The notes under the pieces: generated by a model | What the model was told of the DNA's origin: nothing | The model's database searches: none | Seen by the model: only the letters and a program-made list of their open reading frames with translations | Source: Catajapyx aquilonaris | Lineage: Eukaryota | Direction of reading: 5' to 3' | NCBI GenBank assembly: GCA_000934665.2 | Contig: KZ538329.1 | Span: 1 to 64,000, forward strand | DNA length: 64,000 nucleotides | Position numbers and translations under genes: made by a program | Part shown: piece after piece, positions 210 through 63,602 of the stretch | How positions within the stretch are numbered: position 1 is the first letter of the stretch | Layout of the letters: every line of letters begins with the position of its first letter

Positions 210-650
210 CTGATTCTCCCTTCCTCCGTCTCCGTCACTGCCACCGCCTGCATCCTCCTCCTCCTCCCTGGCTGGACCATGCCTCCCTCTGCCGTCCCCC
301 TCTTCCGCTGCACCAGGGTCACTTGTTTCCTGGCCGCTGTTGCCCTCTTCCCGTGGCTCCTCCTTGATGACCCGGGCTGTGACCCCCACCACCTGCTCCT
401 GCCCACCCTCCTCCTCCCCTGGGTCCTCCTTGACCCTCAGACCACCTCTTTCTTTCCAAACTCTCTTGGCCATCTCCTCCTTGGTGAACCTGACGGTGAC
501 CCCCACTGGTTCCTCCTCCTCCTCTGGCTCCACCTTGACCCTGTCCCACTTGGAGTGAGTGAAGCTGTGTCCCAACAGATCAATCCTCCTCTTGAAGATC
601 TTGTCTGGGCAGCATGGGCAGGGGTATCTCCCCAATTTCACCATCTCCAT
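210..650 (-). CDS. 5' coding exon of zinc-finger cluster member E (gene continues beyond the window start)
   Basis: Encodes YPCPCCPDKIFKRRIDLLGHSFTHSKWDRVKVE, the N-terminal module seen in paralogs A, B and C, followed by an acidic linker. ATG at 650; phase-0 donor CAG|GTGAGA at 209. The true start could lie further upstream. Confidence 0.6.
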
Positions 651-2060: not shown

Positions 2061-2771
2061 TGCAAAAAGCTCCAGAATTCAAATACGTACCATGTAGACA
2101 TTACAGACTTTTATTGGAACAAATCATTAGATTTTATTAGTTCATTGGCCTTTCAGGTAATTTACACCTTCATGGGGAGGGAACTGTCCCTGCAGGATTA
2201 TTAATTCAATTGTTTTCTACAATCCTACAAAACCCAACGTGCATTTTTACTACAGTACATTATTGTTATGACTACCTTATTTTCATATGAATTGATATGA
2301 CCTTACTAAAGATAAGTACAATTTGAGTCCTTTATTGGATACAGTGTACAGCAATCCGAAGGTCACACATGACCTCATAAGTAAGTCTCATTAACCTAAC
2401 TTCCTATTTAAAATTTCATCATTACTTACATAGATCTAAAGAAGCCTCATATAAGACAGTACAGAAGTGTACTTGTTAAGCACATAACTGAAAAATAACT
2501 TGGGTTAAAAAAATAACATGAAAACGCATGCAGATATCCTTAATGACAACACAATCATGTCTGACCATCTTTACCAACGTCACTTTTTGTCATTTTCAAC
2601 TTGGCATTTCTGCATATGGCGTTTCAGGTCAAAGGGCCTTTTGTAAACCTTTTCACACCCATCACACTGGAACTTTCCTTGATCATCAGAGTGCACATAT
2701 TTATGCCCTTTCAGACTTTTATGGGAACTGAAAATCTTGGAGCAAATGTTGAATTCAATACATTTCTTAGG

Positions 2772-5700
2772 TTAATGCTTTTTCATATGATCGCGCAGAC
2801 GACTAGTTGATATAAAACCCTCTGAACAAATGCTACATGTGAAGGGCCTCTCGCCAGTGTGACGTCGTACATGAATGTCAAAGTCCGTCTTAGACATGAA
2901 CATGCGATGGCAAACGGGGCATTTATGTTCTTTGTGTCCCCTTGTCTTGTGACCATGACACCTTTTCCTGTGATAAAGTAAATTGCTTCTATGGCCATAT
3001 TTTTTTGAGCATTCTGGACAATTGTAATTCGGCACCTCTCCTTTGTGAACTCGCCTCCAATGATCTTGCATAGAATATTTATCAGAAAAGCTTTTAGGAC
3101 ATTCTTTGCAAACATAACCCTTCTTATCTTTATCTTTGCCATGTGCTGTTTCCATGTGCAACTTCAGACATTCCTTCAGCTTGAATCCCTTACCACACTG
3201 ATTACACATAAAATTAGTTTTATCTGAATGGAGCAGCAGCATGTGGCGCTCCAGATTCCTTTTTGACATCAATTTTTTTGAACACAAGCTGCACTTGAAT
3301 CGTTTCTCACCAATGTGAGTACGCATATGTCTCACAAGGTAACATTTGCTAGAAAAAATCTTGCTACAGTGGTCGCAAGTGTAGCCATTGCAATTAAAGT
3401 TATGGCTGCTCTGTTTGTGCATGTTCAAACGATAGGGAGATTTGAACTTCTCTGAACACATTTCACAGGCATAAGCCAGCTCATTGTCACGTTCATGATA
3501 AAAAGTAACGTGATTAATGTAATCTTTCTCATTAGGTAAAATTTTGGAACAATAAGGACAGCTGGTAGGAGTGTCTGTCTCACTTCCCATCCCTACAGGT
3601 AATGCATTAAGTGGTTCAATGATTTCTTCACCCGAATGCACCCTCTGATGCTCCTTTAAACTGTGGCGATACTTGAATGATTTCTGGCAAACGTTGCAAT
3701 TAAAAGGCTTACTATCAGAGTGGACTGCCATGTGCAATGCAAGTCTGGAGGGTCTAGGGAATGTCTTGTTACATACTTCGCAGGTTAAAGCCTTCTGACC
3801 CTCCCTCCAACCCTCATGCTGTTTTTCGTGACTCTGCAAAGTGTCAAGATACTTGAATGATTTCTTGCATTTTTTGCAGGTGAATGGTTTGTCTCTGTGC
3901 ACTGCACTATGCACATGCAGCCTGTAGTGAGAAGAGAATTTTTTCCTACACACCTTGCAGGTTAATGACTTTGGACTACATGCATTTGTATCAGCATGCC
4001 GATCTAACCCTGCTTTTGTCTTAAATACTCTACCACAGCGTGTACAACAAGGTTTCTTACTGGCAGGCTGCTTCTTGCGACTGTTTAACCCCGATACCAC
4101 CTGCCTCTTACTCCTCCTGAGCTGCTTATTGTTTGGTGATGTACTGCCCTGAAAAATGACATTGATGTTAATTCAGTTGCAGGGCCAGTCTTGGGGGATA
4201 AGGGTCCCCACTGGTACAGGGTACACAAGGTTGACTTATGCAAGGGGTCTGGTGATGCTGGGCAGAAGGGGCAGATCCTAAATGTGGGAGGCATGACCAT
4301 TGACAGAATGGAGATTTATTGCTTCCTTCTGGTCAGCAATCCTTCTGATAGCAAAGGAGGGGGAGAAGAAGTGTCCTCACGGTCACTCAATGACCCTGCA
4401 CTTAGACATAATTCCCCTTTTCTTTTATACCTACAAAAACCCAAAACAGTTTTATCAGTTAGGGAGTAGTACCAGCTGCTTATTGACCCTTTGTATGGGT
4501 TATCAGTTGGTTTTAAATTTCGATAGCAGGAAGTGACGGCACAGAAATTAGGAAACAGCACCTGCGGCTTACTGACCCTTTGAATCGTGGTTTTGTATGG
4601 GTTTAAAGTGTGGGAAGTGACCAGGGACTCCGGAATTAATTCCTCAAGCTGGACCAGAATGCAGGCGGGATCATTGTTATCCGTCAGGGCGAGGCCCTGG
4701 TTACGAATAACCTGCTTGCTTGCAGCTGAATTCTGTTTGTTACATGGAATTGTGCTTTAGTATTCTTTTCGGGTCTTTGGGGATTCTATTCGGGACAGAT
4801 TTTGAGGTGATTATAGGATTGAATAGCCCTTTGTCTTGGTGATGCTGTATGGCTTTTTGTTACCGCAACAGTACTGTCCATTGCTGTGGGCTTGTCACAG
4901 GCATGGTACTTTGCCAATTCGTGATATTTTTAGTTTTTGCGGAGCGATAGCAGAGCTGGGCCTTATTGTGGGTTTGTATACGCCTACAATGCGGTCACTG
5001 AACGTTACCGTAGCTTTGCCGATTCCCGATCTGCCCTCCTCCACTTGGCTCTCCCCTTCAATCATGTCTACGACTCACTCTGCAGATGTACTGCTGCACA
5101 TGCTCAGGAAACACGGCTGGTGTGACTGCATGTCGTTCTTAGGGTTAACCAGAGCCTGGGGTTAAATAATGAACTGAACCATCGTTTAAATTAGCCACCT
5201 CCTTCTCAGCACTCGTCTGATAGGTTTGAGTGGCAGGTAAGGTCCATAGCCAATACGTTTGGAGCCCACCCGACCCATCCAACCCCGCCGCGTCTCTACA
5301 TGCGGATAAACGATAGACTTTCCTTTCCATTGTTGCCTAATGCATTCTTAAGCTGGAGTGTTTGTAATAACCTAGCACCTTACAATTCGACCTGAGAGAT
5401 GACAATGATGCTATCTGCATTCTGCTCCAGCATGAGGAATTAATTGCGGGTCCCTGGTCACTTCCCCCACTTCAAACCCACACAGAACAGCGATTCGAAG
5501 GGTCAGCAAGCCACAGGTACTGTTTCCTAATTGAGTTGGCGATTGGCCTGTAACCCAACATAAGCTAAAATACCTGGGTGCAATGAGTCACAATTTTATC
5601 CGAGATTGCTACGTAAATCATAGTCTGTGATAAAAAGCAATGAAAGAAAGTAACATCATTATGCTACCAGTCTTTCCCACATTGATCAAAACTTCAAAAA

Positions 5701-7228
5701 CCCTCTGCCTGTTTTGTGAATGAAGGATTACTTCTGGACAACTTCGATGGCTAAGAACAGCGTGCCTTAAAATAATTGTGTTCCGCAAAGATATTAAGAT
5801 GCAAATAGTCATTATCTCTGTTACAGCTAATGCACAGAAAATAAAAATATTTTCCAACATTATATTTTGTCTCATAAGCTCAACATAAAGAAAAGAAAAG
5901 TGTCCAAATAGTCAGTTACTTGAGTCGAGAATGTTGCCATTGGAGTCACGATTCAGATGATATCAAGAGTGACTTTATTTCTATCGAAATGCCAGGCAAG
6001 CACCTGGACTGGTCTGTCACAATTTAATGTGGATGGTGAGAGTGGGGACAATTATACATGGTCCTCTCTCTAACATATTGCAATTTACTTACTGCAGGGT
6101 CTTCTTCCGTGACCTTATCCTCTGCCTCTGAGTCGCCACTCTGCAATGGTGAATCAACTGTCGTTTCAAGGCCTTCGCTGTCAAGTAGTTCATCACCAGT
6201 CTCACTGTCAGTTGCCCCATCCTGACCTCCTTCTCCTTTGACGTGGCACGGCCACAGAGCTGGTCCTTCCTCCTGAAGACAACAATTCGAATGATCAGAA
6301 GGATGTCCATGGCCACCATTTCCAATGCCCCCAATCCCCCTCCCCAAACAACCGTGCCAAGTGGAGGCCAACCTCCACTTTGATTTCCATCTTCAGTCCC
6401 CCATCCTCCAGACCCCCTTCTTCTTCTTCTTCCTTCACTTGGACATCTCCTGGTACATCTGGCTCATCCTCCTCTTCCTCTTCCTCTCTCCTGTGGGGCT
6501 CAAGTGGTCCATTGCCAGGTTCAGTCGCCCCGTCCGGACCTCCTTCTCCTCCTTTGATGTGGTATTGCCACAGAGCTGGTCCTTCCTCCTGAAGAAGACA
6601 ACAATTATTCGAATGATCAGGAGGGTGTCCATGGCCACCATTTCCAATGCCCCCAATCCCCCTCCCCAAACAACCCATGCCAAGTGGGGGCCAACCTCCA
6701 CTTTGATGTCCATCTCCAGTCCTCCTTCATCCTCCAGACCTTCTTCTTCTTCTTCTTCCTTCACTTGGACATCTCCTGGTCCATCTGGCTCATCCTCCTC
6801 TTCCTCTCTCCTGTGGGTCTCCAGTGGTCCATTGCCAGGTTCAGTCGCCCCATCCGGACCTCCTCCTCCTCCTCCTCTGACGTGGCATGGCCACAGAGCT
6901 GGTCCTTCCTCCTGAAGAACAACAATTCGAATGATCAGAAGGGTGTCCATGGCCACCATTTCAATGCCCCCAATCCCCAAACAACCCATGCCAAGTGGGG
7001 GCCAACCTCCACTTTGATTTCCATCTTCAGTCCCCCATCCTCCAGATCTTCCTCCTTCACTTGGTCATCTCCTGGTCCATCTGGCTCATCCTCCTCCTCC
7101 TCCTCCTCCTCTCTTCTCCTGACCTGGTCCCATCTGCTGTGGGTGAAGCTGTGGACTAGAAGCTCCAAGTGGGTGGGGAATGTTTGGAGACAGCAACGAC
7201 ACTTGTGCAGGCCACTAATTGGATCCAT
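2772..7228 (-). CDS. C2H2 zinc-finger protein, paralog A; exons 7007-7228, 6696-6911, 6373-6588, 6093-6272, 2772-4148 (~736 aa, 14 array fingers before an early stop)
   Basis: All four introns are GT-AG and phase 0, giving one open frame. N-terminal CRCC..HSFTHSRWD module; tandem fingers with HTGERPF/HIGEKRF linkers. TAA at 2772-2774 replaces the TCA found in B and C. Confidence 0.8.
4546..5532. mobile_element. Non-autonomous DNA element with ~120-140 bp imperfect terminal inverted repeats, in the last intron of paralog A
   Basis: 4546-~4665 (AATTAGGAAACAGCACCTGCGGCTTACTGACCC...) is the reverse complement of ~5415-5532. No transposase is recognisable inside. Confidence 0.65.
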
Positions 7229-7917
7229 CACTGAAAAAATTAGCACCTCATTAGCGAAAAGGAAATGAGAAACAGGCGCATAAAGTGCTGGACTAAAGAA
7301 AACAACTGTCAACAGGCCTGTTATACACTGACAACATTTTAGACGAAGTTGTGGGGGCTTTCGCATTGCACTTTCTCACCTTGTATCCAGTTTACAGCCA
7401 CAAAATCACACATGAGAGCTCATCCCACAACTTCGAATAGATTTTCTGCTGGGCAATCTGCCTATTCACAGTTTTCTTCGTCATTCAGTAGTTTTTTGTG
7501 GCACGATTATTTCTTTAGGCTCTCAAATCTTTCTTAACCTCCTGAGACCCGGCATCCAATATATTGGACATCTGGAAAAGTTTTTTTTGGCACCAACTAG
7601 TGATGCAAACAGAATTGTAATCTGTTGGTATCCCACAATCTGGGCCTCAATAGGTGTAGCCACCTACTGTCGAATATCTGACTTGGGCCTCGAAAATTAA
7701 ATCGAATATTAAATGGCGGATGCTACTGCTGAAGCTAGGTGCTCATCTGATAAGTTTTATTTTTTTCCTCATACTTAGAGTGCGATTTTCGTCAATGCAG
7801 CGAATGTCCTGGGATTCACAAGGAATGTCCATTAGGAAATACGAAAAGATGTGTCTGTGACAGTCTTCGTTGCCGTAGAGGACTGGCCATTTTCTTTTCT
7901 TCCTGAGACCAAATGCC

Positions 7918-7918
<1 letters not shown>

Positions 7919-7960
<42 letters not shown>

Positions 7961-7991
7961 TCATATATTCATTCATTCATTCATTCATTCA
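7919..7991. repeat. (TAA)n followed by (TTCA)n microsatellite
   Basis: Directly visible. Confidence 0.9.
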
Positions 7992-9024
7992 TTACACTCA
8001 CGGCATATTCCCAAGATGGGGTTACCAGCGATGACCAGGAGGTACAAACCACCTGACCATCTCGAATGACCAATTTAATGAATCCTTTCCAAAATGTTCC
8101 TCATCTCACGCCCGTTCATTTGATATACGTGTAATATAATGGGGTTACAACAATACATTCTGAGATGGCCGAGCCACCAACCTGGCTGGCTTGTCATAGA
8201 ATGACAGAGACGCACCCGGCCACACTATTTATTTTATATCTCGGAACCTAATACGAATACAACAATGGAAATGCATACCACTGAAAGGGTATGAGTTGCA
8301 GATTACTCATAAAAATTTTCGTAAAATGCGACTTGGTGCGGGTCGTCACGCCTCCTTATTTACTGTATTTGATATCTCGGACCCTAATACGAGGGCCAAA
8401 ATGAAACTTGCAGTACTGAAGGGGATATGATCTTCCAAAATGGCACGTAATTTTAATCGTAGAATTTTTTGGAGGTTATCTGCGGGTTTGGCGTTTACCT
8501 TGTATAGAATTTAAAGCCCCATTTTGCATGCATGTGGGACGCATAATTATTAGAGAAATTATCGCGTTATTGTAAACATCAGAATGGAAAAGTTCCCATT
8601 TTTGACCTCGTCATTTCTTGTCACCTATAGCGGATAGCGGTTATCTGGTTTGAAAAATATGTCCCTGTGACCTTGACAAAATACAATCCTAAGCACCAAA
8701 TTTCGATTTTCTAAAAATAATTTTAAAAAATAATTTAAAAAAGTCGGGTGAACATCGTTGTATGATCTCAAATGGAATTTTACCCAAACTAGAAATAAGT
8801 TGCACGAATAGTAGCGGCGCTCTCAAACAGCGACCCAGACCGTGCTGCCACTTGCGGGACTGTGTGACCAAGGGACCGCGGCCGTGACCGGTGAGCAGGG
8901 TCTTGTGGATTCCGGAACATCGCCAAATCAACATGTCCGTAACTTGGCAGTGCGCCCAGGATTACCAACACATAAACACAAAAACACATAAACAGTCGCG
9001 ACATTACTTTTGCGGTCAATAGTA

Positions 9025-9359
9025 CAGTGCTGGACAAAATAGCCGTCGCTGAATGTTTTTTTCCGGCGGCAGCGGAGGCGGCGTTACCTGGCAACCCTGT
9101 CCGGTGGGCCAATTCAAACATCTGCCCATGGAGATCGCTTCGATTGTTGCCACTGTTTACAAATCGAACGAGTGACGCGGACGACCCAGCGACGGGTCTC
9201 TTCTGCCTGCGCACTCACTCACTCGATTTGTAAACAGTGGCAACAATCGAAGCGATCTCCATGGGCAGATGTTTGAATTGGCCCGCCGGACAGGGTTGCC
9301 AGGAAACGCCGCCGCCGTCGGAAAAAAACATTCAGCGACGGCTATTATGTCCAGCACTG
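9025..9359. mobile_element. Tc1/mariner-type foldback MITE nested in the piggyBac-like element
   Basis: TA|CAGTGCTGGACA...TGTCCAGCACTG|TA with ~140-bp near-perfect arms. Confidence 0.85.
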
Positions 9360-11093
9360 TACACCCATAAGGAAGTGTGCTTTTCACTATACAGTTCGGT
9401 TTTAAAATCTAGAATAGTGAGGTACCATTATGGGAGGTCAGAAGGGAAGGAGCAAGGCCCATGGTGGAGTGGTGGCCTTTCAAATAATTTCATATTTATC
9501 TTTAATTGTCTCCTGAGAGGATTTGCTACCATGAATTCCACAAATGAATGTAAAAAAACATTGTTTGGAGGTTAGAGCACTATGCGAGTGATCAATTGAG
9601 TGGCAATTAAACTTTTCAACATTTATCCGCTCTGCTTTTGTAGCAGGAATTGCGTCCTAATGTTCTCATTGGTTGTTTGTCATAATTTATTTCAATATTT
9701 TAGAATTATGATTATTTTTTTTCTCGTTTCTTATTGGGAACATGTTCAAAAAATGCAATAGGAACTGACATTGCGTTACTCAATTCTTCTCGGGTCTCAG
9801 GAGGTTAAACAAGCCAATGGGTAGTGAATAATTTGCAAACCTTCTACAACCAGTATTAATGGTGGCAGTCATCATTTCCAATTGTGACAAAAAAATACTA
9901 GCAACATGTAGTTTCTTTTTGACACTAGCTTTAGGCAGACTGTTGACCTCCCTGCCCTGTTTTCATTACCTCCTCACGAGTGGACGTGTCTTCTTCAGAT
10001 CTCACAAGGGGCAGGAGGATCCGAGGCCGCCGCCTTCTTCCTTCTTCCCAACCAGAGGATAAGAGGACGAGAGAAGAAGAAGAGAAGGCTTCTCATTCAT
10101 CGGCCATGTTGGGCCAGTCCGAATAGAGCAACGGGCTTCCCCTGGCTTCGTCGGTTCGTCCGAATGTGCCCAGTATGGCAGTTCACATTCCTGCCAACAG
10201 ATGGCGAGGGTGGTCCTTGTGGCGGCAAGATATGTTTTCCTCAAGTTTTCCTGGAGTTATTTCCATCCACCCGAGGGTCCACCAGTAGGTCAATCCTGAA
10301 GTGCAGCAGAACCAAAACCACGACCGAAACAATGACATCAACAGCAGTTCACTTCACCGTTCACTTTAATACCTTGTTGACCAGATGACAGAAGGAGACG
10401 AGCAGATGATCAGCTGTCTTGATGACCAGATGATCTGATGCATGTGCTAAAAACCTTCCCTGTTAAAAACTACCCCTAATGATCACCCTGGGGCATACTA
10501 TGTCAAGGCCGCCGTATTGATTTGCATCCGGAACATACAGACAGGACATACAGATATACGTTGAGAAATATGTATTAGATTATATAGAAGTTCTTTAATT
10601 CCATTGAAGTTTTTTGGTACACCCTGTAGGTTCAGGTTCAAAATATAACCTAAAATTCGAAACCAGCTACCCCGAAAATATGGGGAGACATAGTTTTTAC
10701 ATTTTTACGTGCTTAAACGGTTTATTTGAGGAGCTATCATTTTCGATCGCGTTTTTTTCTGTTTCTGATAAATTTTACATTTACAACAACCACGGGAAAA
10801 TGGGGGGGGGGGGGGGGTCATGCAACAAACTTCCACATTAATTTTAACGTGATTTAGTTCCTCTTCCAGCACTTAGCTTCCTTAATACAATAGTCTTCTA
10901 CAATCCTACAAAACCCATTATTGTTATGACTACCTTATTTTAATGTTAATTGATATGGCCTTACTAAAGATAAGTACAATTTTAGTCCTTTATTGGATAC
11001 AGTGTACAGCATTCCTAAGGTCACACAGAACCTCAAAAGTTAGGTCTCATTTAAAACCAAACTTTCTACTTAGAATTTCATCATTACTTACAT

Positions 11094-11117
11094 CAAGAGC
11101 TAATAACTTAGCTCTTG
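11094..11117. mobile_element. 24-bp palindromic transposon remnant or footprint with 7-bp TSD
   Basis: CTTACAT|CAAGAGCTAATAACTTAGCTCTTG|CTTACAT. The paralogous site downstream of gene C (~15664-15670) has a single CTTACAT. Confidence 0.75.
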
Positions 11118-11265
11118 CTTACATCTAAAGAAGCCTCATATAAGTTAGTGTACTTGTTAAGCACATAAATGATAAATCACTTGGTTAAAAAAATTACCTG
11201 AAGACGCATGCAGATATCTTTAATGACAACACAATCATGTCTGACCATCGTTAGAAACTGAAACA

Positions 11266-13470
11266 TCACTTTTTGTCATTTTCAACTTGGCATTTCTGCA
11301 TATGGCGTTTTAGGTGAAAGCGCATCTTGTAAACCTTTTCACACCAATCACACTTTAACTGCGTTGCTTGCTGCGTTGAGTGCACAGATTTATGCTTTTT
11401 CAGACTTTTATGGGAACTGAAAGTCTTGGAGCAAATGTTGCATTCAAAACATTTTTTACGTGAATGCTTTTTCATATGATCGCGCAAATGACCAGTGGAT
11501 ATAAAACCCTCTGAACAAATGCTACATGTGAAAGGCCTCTCGCCAGTGTGACGTCGTACATGAATGTCGAACTCACTCTTCAGCAAGAACATGCGATGGC
11601 AAATGGGGCACTTATGTTCTTTGTGTACCCTTGTTTTGTAACCATGACACTTTTTCCTGTGAGCTAGTAAATTGGTTCTGTGGTCATATTTATTTGAGCA
11701 TTCTGGACAATTGTAATTATGCACTTCTCCTTTGTGAACACGCCTCCAATGATATTGCATATTATAATTATCAGAAAAGCTTTTAGGACATTCTTTGCAA
11801 ACATAACGCTTCTTATCTTTATCTTTGCCATGTGCTGTTTCCATGTGCAACTTCAGACAATACCTGAGTTTGAATCCCTTACCACACTGATCACAAATGA
11901 AATTAGTCTTATCTGAATGGAGCAGCAGCATGTGGCGCTCCAGGTTCCTTTTTGTCATCAATTTTTGTGAACACAAGCTGCACTTGAATCGTTTCTCACC
12001 AATGTGAGTACGCATATGTCTCACAAGTGTAGATTTGTTAGGAAAAATCTTGCTACAGTGGTCGCAAGTGTAGCCATTGCAATTAAAGTTATGGCTGCTC
12101 TGTTTGTGCATATTCAAACGATAGGGAGATTTGAACTTCTCTGAACACCTTTCACAGGCATAAGCCAGCTCATTGTCACGTTCATGATAAAAAGTAACGT
12201 GATTAATGTAATCTTTCTCATTAGGTAAAAATTTTGAACAATAAGGACAGCTGGTAGGTGTTTCTGTCTCACTTCCAGTCCCTGCAGGTAATGCATTAAG
12301 CGGTTCAATGATTTCTTCGCCCGAATGCACCCTCTGATGCTCCTTTAAACTGTGGCGATACTTGAATGATTTCTGGCAAACGTTGCAATTAAAAGGCTTA
12401 CTATCAGAGTGGACTGCCATGTGCAATGCAAGTCTGGAGGGTCTAGGGAATGTCTTGTTACATACTTCGCAAGTTAAAGCCTTCCGACCCTCCCTCCGAC
12501 CCTCATGCTGTTTTTCATGACTCTGCAAAGTGTCAAGATACTTGAATGATTTCTTGCATTTTTTGCAGGTGAATGGTTTGTCAATGTGCACTGCACTATG
12601 GACATGCAGCCTGTACTGAGTACGGAATTTTTTCCTACATACCTTGCAGGTTAATGACTTTGGACTACATGCATGCCGATCTAACCCTGCCTTTGTCTTA
12701 AATACTCTACCACAGCGTGTACAACAAGGTTTCTTCCTGATAGGCTGCTTCTTGCAACACTTACTGTTTAACCCCGATACCACCTGCTGCTTACTCTTCT
12801 TTTGCTGCTTATTGTTTGGCGATGTACTGTCCTGAAAAATGACATTTATGTTAATTCAATTATTACAAGTGATGATCTCCAACCTCCCAGGAGTAATTTG
12901 AGTTGATATGACTGGCACTACCTGTATATTACGTGGTTCTGTGCCAAGAGAACCTCATAAGCAGGGTAGTTTGTACAGTATTTAAATTTTTTACAATCCA
13001 TGAAATAATTGCACTTACTTCATGCACTTTGGTGGGTATGGTGACAGTGGCTTTGCCGTTGGTACCTTCTGATGGTGCATTCAAGCACCTCTCGCCGGAC
13101 GGTTCATCAATAGGCTCATATCGAATAATTGGTCTGTCCTGACTGACTTTCTCTGCACAATCAGCTGGGTCTTCTTCCTGTCATTAAAATCAGTAAATGA
13201 CATTGCTACCCCTAACTATTCCTGTAAAACATTCATGCAACAAACCTTCACATTAACTTCAGGGTGATTAACTTCCCCTTCCGGCACTTCTTCCTTCACT
13301 CTGACGCCTATGGTGACATTAAGTCCAGCACCCTGGTCTTCCTCCTCTTCCTCCTCTTCCTTGACCTTGTCCCATCTGCTGTGTGTGAAGCTGTGTGCAA
13401 GAAGCTCCAAGCGAGTCCCGAATTTCTGAAGGCAGCAAGGACACTTGTACAGGCCACCAGCTGGATTCAT
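11266..13470 (-). CDS. C2H2 zinc-finger protein, paralog B; exons 13246-13470, 13019-13177, 11266-12831 (~649 aa, N-terminal finger-like module plus 16-finger array)
   Basis: ATG at 13470; phase-0 GT-AG introns at 13178-13245 and 12832-13018; uninterrupted finger ORF; AATAAA (minus strand) at ~10989-10994, conserved in A and C. Confidence 0.9.
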
Positions 13471-15350
13471 CCCTCACAGATAACACAGATCTGTGGTCAC
13501 TTGGATGCAAGTACGCATTGCCTGGCAAAGCTGGACAAACGCCCTTCTACTCTCCGTGTCTTGCCTGCTGAAACTAAAGCCCTTAGCCCTGCTAAAGCGT
13601 TACTGAACGAAAGAAGAAGAAAGGAAGAAAAAAAACACACATTTCGAAAACACCCGCGGCTTCTCATTGGTTTAACGGGCGCTATAAACCATCTGAGGGC
13701 CCCTGGATACCAGAGTGACTCCGAGGGGACTTGGTAACTTTATACTTCCAACGGCTGTGCAGGAATCTGCTGACAACTGAACATGTCGGATTATGTTGCA
13801 TGAAGCCTTAATTAGTCTCAGGCAGAAGGAAGCCAAAAGCTAACAAAAGTTTCGGAGTTGAGATTCGGAATATGATATAATTATGAATGATTTGAAACAT
13901 ATTGATAATAATATTATAGCATAATACATATAGTATTGTACGGTACCGTGCATGGATAAGGACAACAGTATGGTTGAGCAGTTTTCTCTCTATGGGTGTG
14001 TGATTGGGGGCAGGGACGTCGGAACCATCCCCACTATTTTTTGGAGTGGGGGGGGGGGGGGGGGGGNGGGGGGGGGGGGCAATGGTTACCATTTGCCCCC
14101 GCTATTTGAAATGGTCACATACATACATTTAAATATTAACCCCCATTTTGTTTATCTTCTAAAACTATAAATTTGAAGAAGGAAAATCGACTCGTCAACC
14201 GGAATTTGTGAATGCACCATTAGTCGTCCATTAGTGATTAGCGACGGCCTAGGAGAGAGGGGGCGAGCCGGAAATGGTTTGAAACGGGACTCTTCGGCGG
14301 TAGCTTCAGTGCCGGCTACTACTTCTGTATATTAGGCAGGGATGCCGCAAAAATCTTGGATAGGAAGGAAGTCAGTAAGTGCTATAAAATCGTCACGAAT
14401 CCCGTTAAAAGGGGTCCCCAGCAGTTTTTCTGGAAAACTAAAGGAAATACTTGAAAGAGAGTCTCAGTTTGTGACTCGGGGGCGGCCCTTTGTATCGTCG
14501 GTGTTCTTCCGTATTCCGTTGGACATTTTGCATCTCATCTGACCGTCCCTAAACACCCCTTGGTCGTACTTACCCCCACCCCCTTCCCACTCCCTCCAGT
14601 CGTCTGTTGCCCCACGCCAGCCATGAATGAGCATATCGGTATGTGTTGGATTATCGCTAAATAATTATGATAATAATTACACCGTTTCACAGCCTTTCGA
14701 GGTCGGTTCCCTCCTTCTCTTGGCTTCCGTTGGATTCCCATTTTTGACGAGCACAATTTGTGAAAATAATTATTGTACTTATGAAAATATATTAATTTGC
14801 CTTAACGAGAGAATTAAAACGTAACTTTGGCACATAAAACAGGCACCTGCAGTATTTTGATTCCCAGCATATACTGCCATCAATTTTATGCAAAAACAAT
14901 AGGTTCATTATTTTAGCTGTAATGTTGTTTATGTCGGAGTTTTGTAAAACACTGGAGCAGTTTTCTGTATAATTTTAAAGTCAAAATACAAGCGACAGAC
15001 AAAAGAGAGGAGGTGGGCAACCTTTCTGTCATTGTTACTAATATTAGTAACACTTACTGTAACATTCACCTAAGCTTGTGTGACAAAAAAAAAAATTGCC
15101 TGCGGCGGGCTGCTTCTTTGCCCTCCACTCATCCCTGATGGGGGTGTGTGCGACGGGGAATAGACGAATTTATTGCAAATTTTGCAATAAATTGCAAGAA
15201 AATTTATACGAGTGCTGATAATAATTCGTGCTAATTAATGCACGGCTGTGCCCGGATATTCGAAAAACATGGATAATCCGAAAACGGTCCTGTAGACACC
15301 GCAAAAATGAGCTATCCAGAGGTTTTTAATGAACTTCCTGGAACTACTAT

Positions 15351-15384
15351 TAAGAGCTAATAACCAGCTAGTTATTAGCTCTTG
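15351..15384. mobile_element. 34-bp (17+17) palindromic transposon remnant or footprint with 7-bp TSD
   Basis: CTACTAT|TAAGAGCTAATAACCAG-CTAGTTATTAGCTCTTG|CTACTAT; same terminal sequence as 11094-11117. Confidence 0.75.
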
Positions 15385-15793
15385 CTACTATACGATGGAA
15401 CTGTCCCTTCAGGATTACGATTATTAATTCAATAGTTTTGTACAATCCTATACAAAACCCAACAGGCAACTTTACTGCAGTACATTATTGTTATGACTAC
15501 TGTATTTTAATGTTAATTGACGTGGCCTTACTAAAGATAAGTACAATTTGAGTCCTTTATTGGATACAGTCGTGTACATCATTTCTAAGGTCACACATAA
15601 CCTGATAAGTAAGTCTCATTGCCCAAACGTTCTACAAGTAGCCTACTTAGAATTTCATCATTACTTACATCTAAAGAAGCCTCATATAAGAGTAGTGTTC
15701 TTGTTAAGCAAATAACTTGGTTCAAAAAATAACATGAAGTAATTACTAATGACAACACATTACACATATGTCTGACCATTATGGTGGCAAACA

Positions 15794-18054
15794 TCACTCT
15801 TTTCCTTTCTTACCTTGACATTTTGGCAAATGGCGTTTTAAGTAACAGAACCTTTTGTAAACTTTTCCACACCAATCACACTTTAACTGCTGTTGTTCAT
15901 CTGACTCTGAGTGAACACATTTATGCGCTTTCAGACTTTTATGGGAACTGAAAGTCTTGGAGCAAATGTTGCATTCAAAACATTTTTTAGGTGAATGCTT
16001 TTTCATGTGGTTGCTCAAATGACGAGTTGATATAAAACCTTCTGAACAAATGCTACATGTGAAGGGCCTCTCGCCAGTGTGAAGTCGTACATGAATGTCA
16101 AACTTGCTCTTTGACAAGAACATGCGATGGCAAATGGGGCATTTATGTTCTTTGTGTCCCCTTGTCTTGTGACCATGACACCTTTTCCTGTGAGTAAGTA
16201 AAGTGCTTCTATGGCCATATTTATTTGAGCATTCTGGACAATTGTAATTCCGTACTTCTCCTTTGTGAACACGCCTCCAATGATCTTGCATGTTATAATT
16301 ATCAGAAAAGCTTTTAGGACATTCTTTGCAAACGTAACGCTGCTTCTCTTTATCTTTGCCATGTGCTGTTTCCATGTGCAACTTCAGATATTCCTTCAGT
16401 TTGAATCCCTTACCACACTGATCACATATGAAATTAGTCTTATCTGAATGGAGCAGCAGCATGTGGCGCTCCAGGTTCCTTTTTGTCCTCAACCTTTTCA
16501 AACACAAGCTACACTTGAATCGTCTCTCACCAGTGTGAGTACTTATATGTCTCACAAGCGAAGATTTGTTAGCAAAAATCTTGCCGCAGTGGTCACAAGT
16601 ATGGCCATCGCAATTAACGTTATGGCTGCTCTTCATGTGCTTATTCAAACGATGAAGTGATTTGAACTTCTCTGAACACATTTCACAGGCATAAGCCAGC
16701 TCATTGTCACGTTCGTGATAAAACGTAATGTGATTAATGTAATCCTTCTCATTATGCAGAATTTTTGAACAATAATGACAGCTGGTAGGTGTGTCTGTCT
16801 CACTTCCAGTCCCTGCAGGTAATGCATTAATTATTGGTTCAATTATTATTCTTTGACCTGAATGCACAGTCTTCTGATGCTCCGTTAAACTGTTGCGATA
16901 CTTGAATGATTTCTGGCACAAGTAGCAATTAAAAGGTTTACTATCAGAGTGGACTGCCCTATGTAATGCAAGTAGGTAGGGCGTAGTGAATGTCTTGTTA
17001 CACACATCGCAGGTTAAAGCCTTCCGACCCTTCCTCCGACCCTCATGCACCTTTTCATGACTCTGCAAAGTGTCAAGATACTTGAATGATTTCTTACATG
17101 TTTTGCAAGTAAATGGTTTGTCTCTGTGCACTGCGCTATGCACATGGAGCCTATAGTGAGAAGGGAATTTTTTCCTACATACCTTGCAGGTTAATGACTT
17201 TCTACGACACGCATTTGCATCAGCATGTCGACCTAACCCTTCCTTTGACTTAAATACTCTACCACACCGTGTACAACAACAAGGTTTCTTCCTAGTCTTC
17301 TTCTTGCAACTGTTTAAACCCGATACCAACTGCCGCTTACTCCTCCTGAGCTGTGTATTGTCTGGTGATGTATTGCCCTGAAAAATTACAATTAAATTAC
17401 AAGGGTTGATTCCAGGGAGTTTCTTTCATGGTTTGCTTTGTTGTAAGTTGCATGACAGTTTTACAAATAGGCCTACAATTTTAAAAATCTACACTTCTGC
17501 TACATAATTCACAACATGATCCAGCACAATTGGAAGGGCTCAGTTTGTATGAACTTTAATAGAACTACTGTACATGATTAAACTGTCCTCCTTATCATCC
17601 GTGCAGCACTTGTAGTCTACTTACTTCATTCACTTCGGTGACAATGGCTCTCACATTGGTACTTTGTGATGGTACATCCAGGCATCTCTCGTTAGGAGGT
17701 CCACCAATAGGCTCGTGTTGAATTGGTATGTCCTGACTGACCTCTTCTGAACAGTCAACTGGGTCTCCTTCCTGGAGTTAAAATTCATAGATTTTAAAAA
17801 AATTATAGCCCTTCTTGTAAAATGTTGATGCTGCCAACCTTCTCATTAAATTCAGCATCCCCTTCCGGCACTTCTTCCTTCACTGTCACTCTGACGCTTA
17901 CAGTGACATTAAGTCCGCCAGTGCCCTCCTCTTCCTCTTCTTCCTTGACCTTGTCCCATCTACTGTGTGTGAAGCTGTGTGCAAGAAGCTCCAAACGAGT
18001 CCCAAATTTCTGATGGCAGCAAGGACACTTGTGTAGACCACGAGATGTATCCAT
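15794..18054 (-). CDS. C2H2 zinc-finger protein, paralog C; exons 17839-18054, 17625-17771, 15794-17377 (~648 aa, 16-finger array)
   Basis: ATG at 18054; phase-0 GT-AG introns at the same positions as in paralog B; intact finger ORF. Confidence 0.9.
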
Positions 18055-18354
18055 CGCTACAGTGGGTTAGGAAAAGCAGACACTATTAATTTTTCAATCT
18101 TTCTCATACTACAGTACTGCGTTGAATGCAATATGTTTCTCGATAGTGTAAATGAAGAATCCTTGAGAAAAGTGGCACTTAACACACCTAAATTTTGAAC
18201 AGTGTGATCGTAGATAAGCTGGTCTGTTGTGCAACACTTGAATAATGCACATTTCCTGGCAAACCTGGACAAAAGCACTTCTACTCCCACAATCAGTGTC
18301 TTTCCTGCTGAGACTAGCAACATTTGGTCGGGGAGAAGGAAAAAAAAAACCCCC

Positions 18355-18415
18355 ACTTGAAAACACCCTCTTCTCATTGGTTAACTGGCTGCAAAATCAT
18401 AACATTTGAGGGGTG
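18355..18415 (-). promoter_or_regulatory. Putative proximal promoter of paralog C with CCAAT box (homologous block upstream of B at ~13645-13700)
   Basis: GAAAACACCC..CTTCTCATTGGTT is conserved upstream of both B and C and reads CCAATGAG on the gene strand. Confidence 0.4.
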
Positions 18416-18777
18416 GATGGGGTGGATGTAAGTGTCTGGACCAGACGCCTTGTACGTAGACTGGACTTTGCCCATCAACAATAAAGCCCACAAAGGCTGC
18501 AGGAACTTGCTGACTGGACACGTCCTCTTCCGATCCTTGGCTCCATGTACTAGTAGCCCTACATATTTGCATTTTGCAACTCCCTTGGGCAGACAGGAAA
18601 AATGACGACTGACTGACGGTAACCTTGGGTATATGCGAATGAAGAAATGGCAATATTGCATATTTGCATTTAAGTTAATTCACAGAACAATAGATATTTT
18701 GAATATTTGTCCATGACTTGCTTAGTGTCCAGCCCATGGTTGTAGAAGACTCAGGTTAGGTCACTCCCCACCCACCC

Positions 18778-19069
18778 CCTGCCGAGGGGTTTTGCAGTGG
18801 GTGCTCACCTGAGACCGCCACGAGACATTTCCCAGAGCATTTATGTGGCGACCCTACCGGACTAAGGCTGAACTTTACAGGTACGAAAGGGAAGCGCTAC
18901 ATGCTGGCCCAACATGGCCGCCGGCGGCCATGTTGGGCCCCCCAATGTAGTCCTCCCCTTTAGTACCTATAAAGTTCAGCATTAGTCCGGTAGGGTCGCC
19001 ACATAAATGCTCTGGGAAATGTCTCGTGGCGGTCTCAGGTGAGCACCCGCTGCAAAACCCCTCGGCAGG
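18778..19069. mobile_element. ~290-bp foldback with essentially no spacer (MITE-like)
   Basis: Outer arms CCTGCCGAGGGGTTTTGCAG...CTGCAAAACCCCTCGGCAGG are nearly perfect; centre CCAACATGGCCGCCGGCGGCCATGTTGG. Confidence 0.8.
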
Positions 19070-19433
19070 TGATAAGCCCAGAAGATAGGGGTAGTGTACG
19101 TGGGCTGGTCCAGCCCATCTTTAATGTAATGGTCAGGATGACTTTGCTGAAAATGTTTGCTAACTACGCGTACCGTATTATCCTGAACTTTAAAAATCAA
19201 TATATCAAGCGTTCATATGTGGTTCCCATGCTAAATCTTCATATACTAGCTTTGACAGCACAAACTATACTGAAGATTTTCTCATAAAGCATATTAATTA
19301 AATTGATTTATTTAGGCGTATTTAACAGTTCATTGTGTACAAATTTTGAACTGTATTCAAACTCTTACTTGCAAAACTTCACAAGAAGTATTCACACTCA
19401 AACTAAAATAATTATGCATCATATACACGTATG

Positions 19434-19863
19434 CAGAGTGTCCGTGAACCGACCAGTCAGACCTTTACCCGTGGCTTAAATGACACGAGAGGATCATGTT
19501 ATGTAGAGGAGTCATTATGCCTGGGCAGCCTCATTACCGAGATAATGGATCATTTGCCATTTAGCGATTGGGCCTAAGAGTGATTGTAAAATATCAGTGA
19601 CAAGTGCGTGCATGTGCGTGTCAGTGTGTGCTGGTGTGTCCCATGCGACATGCTAGTAGCCAAATGGAAAAGCTGCTATTATTTTACCGGTGATGCGATT
19701 TCGGGGCTGAAGGTTTCCATACCACCCAAGATACTTTGTACCAATTTGTACTTGTCGTTTGAAGGCAATAATCTCAGACGTAATGACTCCTCTGCATAAC
19801 ATGATCCTCTGGTGTCAATTGAGCCACGGGTACAGGTCTGACTGGTCGGTTCACGGCACCCTG
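19434..19863. mobile_element. Tc1/mariner-type MITE with ~90-bp TIRs
   Basis: CAGAGTGTCCGTGAACCGACCAGTCAGACC...GGTCTGACTGGTCGGTTCACGGCACCCTG|TA. Confidence 0.75.
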
Positions 19864-22182
19864 TATTAGGCCTACTGTATTATAGTTATTAGGATCAATG
19901 CATCCTTCGAGTTTAGACACTTGCAAACACATCCATTTTTATCATTTTTTGCGTCTGTTTCAAATATGTTATCCCATATTTTCTAGAACCCACAGTTTTT
20001 AAGTAATCGGCATTTTTTAAAGTGTCAAAGAACTTCCCCTGATATACTGTATAGGCCTGAATCCACACCCAATATATTGCCGTATCCTGACATAAAATTC
20101 ACATGTTGATTTTCTGCTGTACCTGGCTTGAGAACATCCCTCTAACGACTAACTGAACATAATTATACACGAAGAAGTAGAGGAATTGAGGGAACAATAG
20201 TTGACACATACGCTGCATAGGTATACACAGTACATTATATGAAATCTGAGTGAAATATTCAAAACATAGCTTGGTTATGAGTCGTACACTGAAATTCCTC
20301 ATAATTTGACACTGGACACTGGATAATAAGACTTAATTAATGGATGGCTCATGTTTCCCCTGTTGTGACAGCAGCAAATGAACCAGAATTACTCAGAATT
20401 ACAAGTATATTACAGCCTGTAATATACTTGTAATTCATATTAAAGATTTTAAAGTAGCCTACGACATTTTAAAATATGCATAGGGTCATATTATTGAGCC
20501 ATATATGTTACTTTTCTAGAAGAGCTAGGTTTGTTTCAAGAAGATTGTTGGCGATAGAAAATTTCTGACTTCATATGCAACACCAGCGCCTCTGAATGCG
20601 TAAGAAATATCGCACCTAATATTGTTAACTTGAAAAAATATCATCGTTGACCAGTGTAAAATAATGTATCCATTCAGCTCTTGATCCATTATAATAATAA
20701 TTACAGACCTTGCGTAAGTGCCTGCACAAGAGGTGTGTGACCCTGTGTGCACTCTGCACTGTGAACTTGCGCAGCAGGACGGGGCCTACGGGATTCTTCA
20801 GGCTTGGTACCGGATGGTGAGCCCTCAAGGTGTACACAGGGTTGTCAATATTCCATAGAGCACGTCAGCACGACCCCGAAAAATGCAGGAAATTGCCATC
20901 CAGTTGGCCTCCAAATACCCTTGTCCCCAGTGACTTCGTATTTCTTGCCCTGTACACTGTACAGTGACCCTCGGCCTCGACCCCTGCCTCGACTGGAAGT
21001 CGGGATTCCTAATTGAAGGCACCTGCTGATGTCCCCCCTTTCGTCCCAAAATTTTCGCCCCTTCAACCTCCTGTAGTATATCCGGCACTGATTTAACCCT
21101 CCAGTCTCGGTGAAACCCTTTCGCCTCCATCTCCATCTTTCATCCAGCACTCAAGCAAATATGTAAATCTTCATTATATTGTGCGAATGTGTACTGTGCG
21201 AGATAATTTGCAATCCTTACGAAATATTTCTAATAGCCAGAGTATACAAGTGTACGGATCAGCGAGAGGCCCCTATATATGGCCCTATCAGCGCGGGGCC
21301 CGTAGCACGTGCTACATGTGCTACTATGTAAAACCGCCCCTGGGCACCTCGAGAAGGAAACAAAAGTTTCAGGCTGGATTTTCTGAATACCATTCGCATG
21401 CACACTGTTGAAAATTATACCCACATAACTATTAGTACCGGTAATGTACGGTTTAGTACAGTATAATAACATCGTCTATTACAGTATTATAGAAATTAAT
21501 GTTTGTGTGTTTGTTTGTCCATTTCATGCCCATGGAAGAAATTCAAAGTTTGTTTGTTTGTTTGTCCCAGCTCCCAGGCTTGGTTACCATTGCGACGGGG
21601 TAAGCATGGTTGCTATGTCAAAGGGAATTTTCAGCCTATTCAGTTTTCTTACAGACATTACAGCTCATTACAGCTCTGTTTATGCAAATAAATAAACATA
21701 TCAATTAAGGGATTTGCGAGAATGTAATTATCAAAAATTCCTCCAACAGATGGCGGTAAGTACGCTGGTTTTTTCGCCATCTGTCCAGCATGAGTCGAAC
21801 TACTCCGGAGTTGAAAAGCGGCAGAATTCAAACGCACTTCGGCATCATCGATGTGATATAGTGTGACACGTGAAATATAAACCTAGAGTAGGCTACTGTT
21901 TATCAATACGTGTGTGGGTGTGTATGTGTGCTGGCGGGACATACCTGGCGCCAAACTGTCCGAAAGTTGATGCCGTCGCTGAAAATTGGGGGGTTGACAG
22001 GTATCGGAGAAGCGGTTTCCGGGAAAAAGGGGGGGGGGGGTTGGCGGGGGATGGGGGAATGTGCAAAGATCCAATGATGCCGTTTTGGGTGGGTGGGATA
22101 GAAAGCGAAGGACGCCTTCAAAGTGCCGCCTGTGTGATCCTGCAGGAATGTGTTTGGGGAAGGAGGAGGGATGGAGGGATGG

Positions 22183-24940: not shown

Positions 24941-26503
24941 TCAGTCGTCCTTCCTTTTCCGCACTTTGCTCTCAGTCTGGATTGTCTCTGTGAGAAGATG
25001 GACACAGTCCGCCAGAGACGGCTGGCTCCTGTCGTGTGAATAGTCCATCTCGCTCAGTCTGGACAGGGCCAGTATGTACGAGCTGGCGATCCTGAGGATG
25101 GACAGTTTGGACAGTTTCTGGTTGTGCGAGTAGGCCGGCACAGCCTGGCGAAGGTTCTCGAACGCGGCGCTGATGGTGTGCACTCGCGTGCGCTCGCGTG
25201 CGTTAGCCTCGACCCTCCTCTCGCGTGTCATGTTCTTGTAATTCCGCTGCTTCAACAAGGCGGCGTTGCTGCTGGACGTCCGATGGTTGCTTGGAGATGA
25301 GGTTGAGGAATGAGGCGTGGACGAGGATGAGACGGCGGCGTCGGCAGCGTCCGGTGTGGCCGGAGCAGGACTTGAACTTTGACTAGCGCAGCACTCGTCC
25401 AGGCGCCACGATGGCGACGGTGCCAGAATGGACTCGACGCTGAAGGACTTGTTGGGCCTGCTGGTGCTCGGAAGGACTGCCGGAGTGGCGCTGCTTCCGG
25501 GCGAATCCCGCTCTCGACAGTCCACCAGGACGTCCTCGTCCTCGTCCAATCGCTCTACTTTCACCTGAGGCTGAAGAAATAATGATCATTAACATGGATC
25601 ACGCTCAAATATACGGTACTATATATGATTTTTTAACGAGCTCAACCGAGTGCGCACCCACATTCGCGCAAGTCCATTGTTCCGTCAACAACTGATCTTT
25701 TCTCATCGTAAAAAAGGACTAAATGCCTCTTTACGTCCTCACGATTTGAGCCTCGGTCGCACGACCAGACGCTTTGCGACCGGACCTATATTTATGTCGG
25801 TCGCAAAGCGTCTGTGCGACCGAGGCTCAAATCGTGAGGACGTAAAGAGGCCTTTAGACCGTTTTTACGACGAGAACAGGCCTCGATTCTTGAAAACACC
25901 TCTAAAAACAACCATACTACGAAAAAACGTCGTATCTGCACTGATAAGGTGCAGATGTGACGTTTCTTCGTAGGACTAAAGTTCCACACATGTCAGTTGC
26001 TATACCTGAGATCTGCTGACGACGAGCGACAAGGGCTGCTCCTCCGGTTCTGGTTGTAGGACCCAGCAGCACCGGGGCGACTGCAGGGGCGGCCCCGGGG
26101 CTAGCGGATGGTTAGGAAGGTACATCAGGGGAAGGAACTGGTGCGGATGGATCGGCATGCCCGGCATTGGAAACGGAAAGTGCTGGGGCGGCGGCGGGGG
26201 TGGAGGAGGTGGCGGTGGGGGCAGGGGCGGCCCCGGGGCAGCTTCCGGAGAGGCCAGGACCTTCCGCTTCTTAGGCAGCGTGGCCACCATCAAAGGCGGT
26301 TCTTTTCTCCGTGGCTCCAACGCCTTCCGCTTGTTGCCCCGCCTGGACATGACCGGAGACGTTGAGGACACCACCATCGACGCTGACGACGCCGTCGACG
26401 CCACCGGTCTGCTGATAACGTGAACCTTAACGTCCACGCTGTCTTCGCTGGAGTCCGTCGAACACATCTCTTCAGGCTCCGGACCAGCCAGAGACATCAT
26501 CAT
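24941..26503 (-). CDS. net: Atonal-superfamily bHLH repressor Net / ATOH8 ortholog; exons 26006-26503 and 24941-25570 (alternative acceptor gives 25564), ~375 aa
   Basis: bHLH RRVEANARERTRVHTISAAFENLRQAVPAYSHNQKLSKLSILRIASSYILALSRL is characteristic of Net/ATOH8. Phase-0 donor CAG|GTATAG at 26005; acceptor TTCTTCAG at 25571. An acceptor at 26508 precedes ATGATGATG, implying a non-coding upstream exon. Confidence 0.93.
25700..25876. mobile_element. Foldback MITE in the net intron
   Basis: GCCTCTTTACGTCCTCACGATTTGAGCCTCGGTCGCAC...GTGCGACCGAGGCTCAAATCGTGAGGACGTAAAGAGGC. Confidence 0.75.

Positions 26504-60293: not shown

Positions 60294-63602
<3,309 letters not shown>

Follow-up and report, generated by a model that had tools for sequence, protein, structure and literature searches.

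This locus raises the question of whether three neighbouring zinc-finger genes of Catajapyx aquilonaris, designated A, B and C, have been driven by selection towards different DNA targets, as a sequence-only reading had proposed for their fingers 8-16, or whether these duplicates have simply drifted. The window, i.e., the whole stretch of 64,000 nucleotides of contig KZ538329.1 that was analysed, contains the following features, for which the exon structures of A, B and C were predicted from splice signals alone:

522..647, minus strand: head module belonging to another gene, from a larger and more distant clade; that gene overruns the contig end
1040..2064, minus strand: frameshifted relic of a fourth copy, an exon-2 piece fused to a broken finger exon
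2583..2771, minus strand: post-stop tail of gene A, presumably not translated, in which F15 is degenerate and F16 looks intact
2772..4148, minus strand: zinc-finger exon of gene A, 14 fingers, TAA stop at 2774-2772
2775..3377, minus strand: fingers 8-14 of gene A, with variable helices
6093..7228, minus strand: predicted 5' coding exons of gene A (7228-7007, 6911-6696, 6588-6373 and 6272-6093)
7103..7228, minus strand: head module of gene A, a lone C2H2 finger plus a conserved tail
9996..10226, minus strand: upstream segment with 83% identity to 5' regions of C53/C337 genes
11266..12831, minus strand: zinc-finger exon of gene B, 16 fingers, intact
11464..12066, minus strand: fingers 8-14 of gene B
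13019..13177, minus strand: predicted exon 2 of gene B, a low-complexity linker
13246..13470, minus strand: predicted exon 1 of gene B, with head module (13470-13345), acidic stretch and psi-KxE motifs
15794..17377, minus strand: zinc-finger exon of gene C, 16 fingers, intact
15995..16597, minus strand: fingers 8-14 of gene C
17625..17771, minus strand: predicted exon 2 of gene C
17839..18054, minus strand: predicted exon 1 of gene C, with head module (18054-17929) and psi-KxE motifs

The arrays comprise 14 to 16 C2H2 fingers (Pfam zf-C2H2, E 8e-56), and by a finger count of at least three the predicted products of A, B and C are assigned to the poly-ZF (tandem C2H2) type. Gene A reads as a chimera that ends after finger 14. 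Its predicted 5' exons, all in phase 0 and with GT-AG sites, share 80-89% identity with the C337 clade and not with B or C, its middle exons derive from a 323-bp tandem repeat, and the segment at 9996..10226 is probably its 5' end. The neighbouring atonal-8 gene identifies the host as an arthropod.

The helix strings (residues -1 to +6, given as A/B/C) were compared with what the minus strand encodes at 2583-4172, 11266-12855 and 15794-17425, and all 21 strings quoted in the earlier reading agreed with the translation:

F8: SKCYLVR/NKSTLVR/NKSSLVR
F10: LKECLKL/LRYCLKL/LKEYLKL
F11: DKYSMQD/DNYNMQY/DNYNMQD
F12: HRSNLLY/HRTNLLA/HRSTLLT
F13: SKTDFDI/LKSEFDI/SKSKFDI
F14: STSRLRD/STGHLRD/STRHLSN
F16: RPFDLKR/MRFHLKR/RFCYLKR

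With helix positions -1, 2, 3 and 6 defined as contact positions, the differences were indeed concentrated in the helices: in fingers 8-16, 21 of 36 contact columns were variable compared to 44 of 221 other columns (Fisher p = 4.8e-6, an optimistic value since these fingers were chosen after inspection). The whole-array value holds (30 of 64 vs. 79 of 412, p = 4.5e-6), and fingers 1-7 gave 9 of 28 vs. 35 of 191 (p = 0.13). The helices of F3 and F6 were invariant and that of F9 differed at -1 only, as the reading had noted, while those of F1, F2, F4, F5 and F7 also differed between the genes. Its description of scaffolds and linkers as nearly identical was overstated, since variation was seen in 31 of 210 columns of the scaffolds and in 33 of 138 of the linkers. 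The F16 row of A, which it had listed as lying after the stop, is not evidence of selection, because the in-frame TAA at 2774-2772 precedes F16 and F15 of A has lost one cysteine. Readthrough of this stop was considered and is unlikely, as the codon is TAA and the next finger lacks that cysteine.

Within the window copies, the contact sites of fingers 8-16 showed a higher dN/dS than the rest of the array (1.2-1.6 vs. 0.29-0.38, p < 1e-6 in four of four models), as diversification of these fingers predicts. For A, B and C alone, contact dN/dS was 1.04-1.61, being above 1 in only one of four models (p = 0.047-0.88 when the part of A behind the stop was masked) and indistinguishable from 1 in the other three. 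Because this ratio is not reliably above 1, the three genes by themselves do not separate positive selection from relaxed constraint, under which exposed helix residues would drift neutrally in redundant, partly decaying duplicates and no new specificity would have been selected. The truncation of A and the relic copy, both broken, fit such decay.

The wider family was more informative on this point. Outside proteins reached at most 36% identity among the 120 matches listed, and A, B and C appear to belong to a young, lineage-specific C2H2 family evolving by birth and death. A codon alignment of 29 paralogs (308 codons, fingers 4-14) was analysed with custom code and naive empirical Bayes, not codeml. 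The comparison of M8 with M8a gave an LRT of 163 and flagged 20 of the 44 contact sites and 9 of the remaining 264; with multi-nucleotide rates, the LRT was 83 and the flagged sites were 13 of 44 and 6 of 264, respectively. The LRT was 17 and 44 when site-to-site rate variation was combined with multi-hits, and 48 and 83 when broken genes were removed and only the 20 intact genes were retained. A class above 1 was needed in every site-model test, the intact genes included, which argues against relaxed constraint, as does the finding that the equally exposed helix positions -2, 1 and 5 were clearly slower (0.75-1.11) than the contact sites (1.29-1.93; p < 1e-11 in four of four models). In its favour, the GY-F3x4 estimate dropped to 1.10-1.12 and was not significant when contact codons were given a separate substitution rate, and the closest tree-free pairs gave 1.01-1.11 under two multi-hit models. 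Relaxed constraint is therefore regarded as distinctly unlikely.

A further explanation is that multi-nucleotide mutation, gene conversion or misaligned fingers produced the signal artificially. Double-hit rates were significant, single-hit models exceeded an LRT of 3.84 in three of eight null simulations, and exchange between paralogs does occur, because the front ends are homogenised between paralogs and gene A is apparently chimeric. The signal nevertheless remained with multi-hit rates, under which null simulations gave 0.81-1.07 in eight of eight runs compared to the observed 1.63. Each finger has its own scaffold, which allowed alignment without ambiguity, and the 406 pairs showed no gene-conversion tract within the finger core. 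Tree-free pairs were mostly concordant, being significant in five of six models for 14 pairs and in four of six for the nine closest (lowest value 1.01). An artefact thus seems very improbable.

These results showed that positive selection at helix positions -1, 2, 3 and 6 is well supported across the 29-gene family, while the fold-bearing residues of the arrays are under purifying selection. The proposed diversifying selection thus stands family-wide at the contact sites and is not reliably above 1 within A, B and C. Its restriction to fingers 8-16 applies to the window clade, where contact sites of fingers 1-7 are conserved (dN/dS 0.39-0.53), and to that clade only, because selection in the family covers fingers 4, 5, 8, 9, 10, 12 and 14.

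C2H2 helices are able to bind RNA or protein as well as DNA. In the A/B/C subfamily, only 44 of 423 linkers are canonical (TGEKP-like), so that continuous wrapping of DNA is not assured, and these irregular linkers break the array into groups of one to three fingers. Selection could accordingly be real and act on a ligand other than transposon DNA. On this reading the proteins would have an architectural or heterochromatin role, as many ZAD-ZNFs do; what they follow would be satellites or promoters, RNA, or protein partners, while their head would only dimerise. ZAD-ZNFs are described in the available part of PMC7655104 as active in heterochromatin and not directly on transposons, and lone N-terminal fingers dimerise in Diptera. 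Against this reading, selection acts here on base-contacting positions, whereas in ZAD-ZNFs it falls mostly on linkers according to the same excerpt, and in the larger clade, whose genes share this head, the arrays are canonical, with 169 of 236 linkers of that type. Overall it is judged unlikely, if less so than drift. For 25 arrays of the larger clade, dN/dS of 1.7-2.3 was discounted, given their homogeneous repeats, whose fingers are not reliably alignable.

Every intact gene opens with a single C2H2 finger, behind which lie acidic SUMO-consensus motifs. The two cysteines and two histidines of this 42-residue head, which also has a conserved Trp and Asp, are invariant in a 45-copy consensus, and its dN/dS of 0.11-0.16 (0.18-0.19 at helix positions) showed strong purifying selection. 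The head motif had 142 exact matches in the genome vs. none for a control motif, giving at least 142 copies. Among 33 sampled head loci that had 6 kb or more, 25 had a finger exon downstream on the same strand; for the opposite strand the count was 0 of 40. In 25 copies, 48 psi-KxE motifs were counted where 4.0 were expected, and in 47 copies 42 where 5.2 were expected.

Among the best 150 of 8741 matches of a head profile search, which was dominated by generic finger arrays, the best outside single-domain score was 28.5 bits (true members, 68-104); a word search scoring 8000 candidates gave five matches, all generic, and searches of Atlas and PDB returned generic fingers only. Since these searches returned mainly generic fingers over limited candidates, they are weak evidence that the head has no homologue elsewhere. 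Two monomer models (pLDDT 72 and 70, with low-confidence flanks) showed no extra N-terminal beta strand and, in one, a short N-terminal helix. Fold searches likewise retrieved generic fingers only (Foldseek gave nothing at or below E 0.001, and the highest Z was 3.6), a result compatible with any family assignment, and a homodimer prediction made without an alignment scored 0.02, which speaks neither for nor against dimerisation.

The account that we favour, and consider fairly probable as a whole, combines recent tandem duplication, contact-site selection, a constant head and a possible KRAB-like silencing design. A, B and C would be recent tandem duplicates of lineage-specific birth-and-death C2H2 transcription factors, and the selected contact changes quite likely equip new duplicates with new DNA targets; contact-site selection has a precedent in the accessible text of PMC2604467. 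In the window clade, fingers 1-7 would keep a common specificity while fingers 8-16 diverge. The head finger is probably, with slightly less assurance than the account itself, not DNA-reading and acts as a constant protein-binding or self-association module. A tentative suggestion is that the family targets fast-changing repeats or transposons and silences them by SUMO-dependent recruitment of a repressor, in a KRAB-like design made from different parts; SUMO-dependent repression in an insect offers a precedent (PMC10672805). The boldest version seems doubtful: an arthropod would have independently built a KRAB-like defence of at least 142 genes, with a C2H2 and SUMO-site head swapped between subfamilies, as in gene A, and contact residues adaptively tracking transposons.

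Selection on contact residues is a textbook signature of vertebrate ZNF families, and the pattern itself is known. A clear arthropod case favours the generality of contact-site evolution across animals, because in the available excerpts no positive selection was found in expansions of 25 fly and 22 mosquito ZNF genes (Emerson and Thomas 2009, PMC2604467) and that of ZAD-ZNFs lies mainly in linkers (Kasinathan et al. 2020, PMC7655104). The literature found, mostly outside subscription journals, contained no account of the head, nor of an arthropod family of this type with selection at contact sites. What appears to be new is the head: more than 140 genes share this conserved single finger, and the searches for outside homologues gave weak evidence that it is absent elsewhere. 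It provides a concrete bait for identifying the co-repressor on which poly-ZF families of arthropods rely, a question raised in PMC6444547, and B and C form a natural pair for testing a specificity shift by few contact changes.

Several known systems share parts of this design, as described in the available portions of the cited sources. Lone N-terminal C2H2 fingers bind protein (10.1101/2025.09.04.674178; 10.1101/2022.02.16.480628). Like the CGEx-type fingers of Diptera (IMZF and relatives), the head is one N-terminal C2H2 finger, separated from the C-terminal array, in paralogs that form clusters; unlike them, it has a conserved extension after the finger, no CGEx motif just before the finger in the 45-copy consensus, and at least 142 copies compared to eight in D. 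melanogaster (10.1101/2025.09.04.674178). CLAMP also binds protein through a single finger at its N-terminus (PDB 7NF9; 10.1101/2022.02.16.480628), but is encoded by a single conserved gene, and the head model matched 7NF9 weakly (E 1.0, Z 2.5), tied with generic fingers. ZAD-ZNFs of insects share a zinc-binding head, disordered linker, array and rapid turnover in arthropods (PMC7655104), but no match to the four-cysteine ZAD (zf-AD, PF07776) was found in the first exon of A or in 45 head copies. Unlike PRDM9, with its PR/SET domain and homogeneous minisatellite-like array, the gene models leave no space for SET and the fingers are heterogeneous.

The closest likenesses are to KRAB-ZNFs of tetrapods and FiNZ-ZNFs of cyprinid fish. 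The former share tandem clusters, birth and death, a one-exon array, a small head exon and positive selection among paralogs at helix positions -1, 3 and 6 (and 2), in the available text of PMC2604467. The present family differs in its arthropod host, the irregular linkers of the A/B/C subfamily and the lack of KRAB, for which no match at E 0.1 was found in the first exon of A or in 45 head copies and the gene models of A, B and C leave no further exon. FiNZ-ZNFs, as far as the accessible part of Wells et al. (10.1101/2022.11.29.518450) describes them, likewise have a lineage-restricted short acidic head exon, sometimes tandemly repeated, before a selected array, and copies in the hundreds. 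Compared by description, their head is an acidic domain of 28 amino acids, whereas the present one is a C2H2 finger that binds zinc through four invariant ligands, and their transposon repression has been shown, whereas the arthropod family is known here from sequence. By analogy, the family appears to resemble KRAB- and FiNZ-ZNFs in its mode of working and to belong to neither.

Three neighbouring genes of the window, A, B and C, carry C2H2 zinc-finger arrays:

4148-2772 (tail to 2583), minus strand, C2H2 array of gene A
12831-11266, minus strand, C2H2 array of gene B
17377-15794, minus strand, C2H2 array of gene C

Every helix string quoted for these genes by the sequence-only reading matched the translation, and the columns varying among A, B and C comprised 30 of 64 contact positions (helix -1, 2, 3 and 6) vs 79 of 412 others over the whole array (p = 4.5e-6). 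The corresponding fractions were 21/36 vs 44/221 in fingers 8-16, and 9/28 vs 35/191 in fingers 1-7 (p = 0.13). The description of scaffolds and linkers as nearly identical was overstated, as 31/210 scaffold and 33/138 linker columns were variable. Gene A has a TAA directly after finger 14 and lacks one cysteine in finger 15, and thus its finger 16 has to be set aside. Between A (2583-4172) and B (11266-12855), synonymous differences were few in the scaffold (4 in 113 sites) and amounted to about 29 in 175 sites in the other classes.

Codon models were custom-written (GY94 and MG94, each either restricted to single changes or also allowing double and triple ones), using naive empirical Bayes and scaled fixed branch lengths. 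In the window clade, comprising A, B, C and a closely related fourth copy on contig C10911 of the same genome, dN/dS in fingers 8-16 was 1.21-1.64 at contact positions and 0.29-0.38 in the rest (difference p < 1e-6 in four of four models), so that contact positions exceeded non-contact ones in the array, as the sequence-only reading had supposed. An excess of the contact value over 1 was supported in 0/4 models for the unmasked clade, and in 1/4 (p = 0.047) when A was masked after its stop, where the estimates were 1.04-1.61; with this masking, contact dN/dS in fingers 1-7 was 0.39-0.53, lower at p < 0.01. On the window copies by themselves, selection and loss of constraint cannot be told apart. 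The C10911 copy (C10911:1-2324, L035) is 93% identical to gene C (window 16243-18534), shows zero amino-acid differences from it in fingers 8-11, and is an allele or a young duplicate.

In the genome search, contigs C53 and C337 proved to carry tandem clusters, and scattered copies turned up as well, at 44-50% identity; family counts are lower bounds, since 82 of 1894 candidates were scored. Thirty-one arrays were extracted, and two were excluded (one truncated, one with a different finger make-up), leaving 29 genes and an alignment of 308 codons spanning fingers 4-14, from which the F5-F6 linker and columns less than 80% filled were omitted. The three window genes and the C10911 copy formed a single clade with 100% support, canonical linkers made up only 44/423 of those in the family arrays, and the best identity of outside proteins to the family was at most 36% among the 120 matches listed. 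In the C53 and C337 clusters (L021-L034), finger count differs among paralogs through internal duplication of a block around fingers 12-14.

Across the 29 genes, comparison of M8 with M8a gave an LRT of 163, or 83 with multi-nucleotide rates, with the selected class at 2.0-2.3. Flagged sites, located in fingers 4, 5, 8, 9, 10, 12 and 14 among others, comprised 20/44 contact vs 9/264 other sites under M8 without multi-nucleotide rates, and 13/44 vs 6/264 with them. LRTs were 17 and 44 in a three-class model that allowed for multi-hits and for rates varying from site to site, and 48 and 83 for the 20 genes left after dropping nine broken or truncated ones. Single-hit models were inflated in three of eight null simulations; with multi-hits modelled, these simulations gave 0.81-1.07 vs the observed 1.63, and the run test on third positions flagged no conversion tracts in 406 pairs. 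An artefact is very improbable. Relaxed constraint, with which the window copies alone are compatible, does not predict the higher dN/dS of contact sites (1.29-1.93) than of helix positions -2, 1 and 5, which are likewise exposed (0.75-1.11; p < 1e-11), and is an improbable explanation. When contact codons were given their own substitution rate, the estimate was 1.10-1.12 with GY-F3x4 (not significant) and 1.62-1.65 with MG in 25 distant genes (significant), and tree-free comparisons were significant in five of six models for 14 pairs and in four of six for the nine closest. The mean over all contact sites is modest and model-dependent because these separate-rate and tree-free results are mixed; that a subset of contact sites lies above 1 is robust. 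The original observation was real, and its interpretation holds at the level of the family.

The predicted models of A, B and C are in frame, with GT-AG sites and phase 0, and encode 736, 649 and 648 aa, respectively. The head encoded by exon 1 is a single C2H2 finger in which Cys, Cys, Phe, Leu, His, His and Asp are invariant and a Trp that follows the helix is nearly so; two structure predictions gave it the fold of a finger. Head dN/dS was 0.11-0.16, its own helix positions included. The Pfam scan of the head gave weak generic finger matches alone, with no match to KRAB or ZAD. A motif search yielded 142 exact matches vs 0 with the reversed control, and two protein searches at least 150 matches each. 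Among 40 sampled loci, a finger exon followed on the same strand in 25 of the 33 having at least 6 kb downstream, and on the opposite strand in none of the 40. Most of the sampled loci fall in a bigger clade whose arrays are canonical (canonical linkers 169/236), and motifs of the psi-KxE type, the SUMO consensus, occur behind the head at roughly ten times the expected number. Loci L057, L061 and L070 (C3909, C3301, C6763) contain two or three tandem heads in a single reading frame; the 5-9 kb covered there includes no finger exon, and the arrangement resembles the repeated FiNZ copies of goldfish. At L079 and L080 (C2360, C1293), where a finger exon was absent within 9.5 kb, a divergent head type may front another kind of domain.

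Over the 5' half of gene A (5830-7285), identity to genes of the C337 clade is 80-89%, and exon 1 of A clusters with them (99/97; 93% identity to one copy), but the array of A clusters with B and C; A is therefore a chimera. Its predicted model includes two extra exons derived from a 323-bp repeat, bringing the psi-KxE count to 9. In the C53/C337 clade, fourfold-site differences of 12% in the head vs 28% in the arrays suggest that front ends were homogenised. Further features of the window are:

4546-4692/5387-5532, 9082-9308, 18735-19112 and 19431-19866, inverted-repeat or palindromic, MITE-like insertions in the cluster
24941-25585, plus strand, atonal-8/net bHLH gene
60294-63602, minus strand, exons of a candidate C-terminal part of a kinase with a Gln/Pro-rich tail

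Three of the inverted-repeat or palindromic elements recur on other contigs (98% for 18735-19112), the named top matches of the atonal-8 gene are all arthropod and place the host in that group, and the kinase exons presumably resemble a JNK-type kinase. Near 40.3-40.6 kb the assembly is interrupted by Ns.

In this family, scaffold and head are conserved and contact residues are selected. Duplicates would probably acquire new DNA targets, and the head is somewhat likely to bind protein, in analogy to the CGEx fingers of Diptera (10.1101/2025.09.04.674178) and CLAMP (10.1101/2022.02.16.480628). More tentatively, the targets might be repeats, silenced via SUMO-linked repressors, as KRAB (PMC2604467), FiNZ (10.1101/2022.11.29.518450) and Bonus (PMC10672805) would suggest; targets other than transposons appear unlikely.

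The accessible portions of the literature yielded no description of this lone-finger head; two items that may bear on novelty are the table of 27 proteomes in the CGEx study and the FiNZ study's figure on entropy. Selection is reported at helix -1, 3 and 6 in vertebrates and was not significant in fly and mosquito (PMC2604467), in ZAD-ZNFs it is reported mostly for linkers (PMC7655104), and high entropy is reported for base-contacting residues in several species (10.1101/2022.11.29.518450). The pattern of contact-site selection is of this known kind; new here are its arthropod setting and the lone-finger head.
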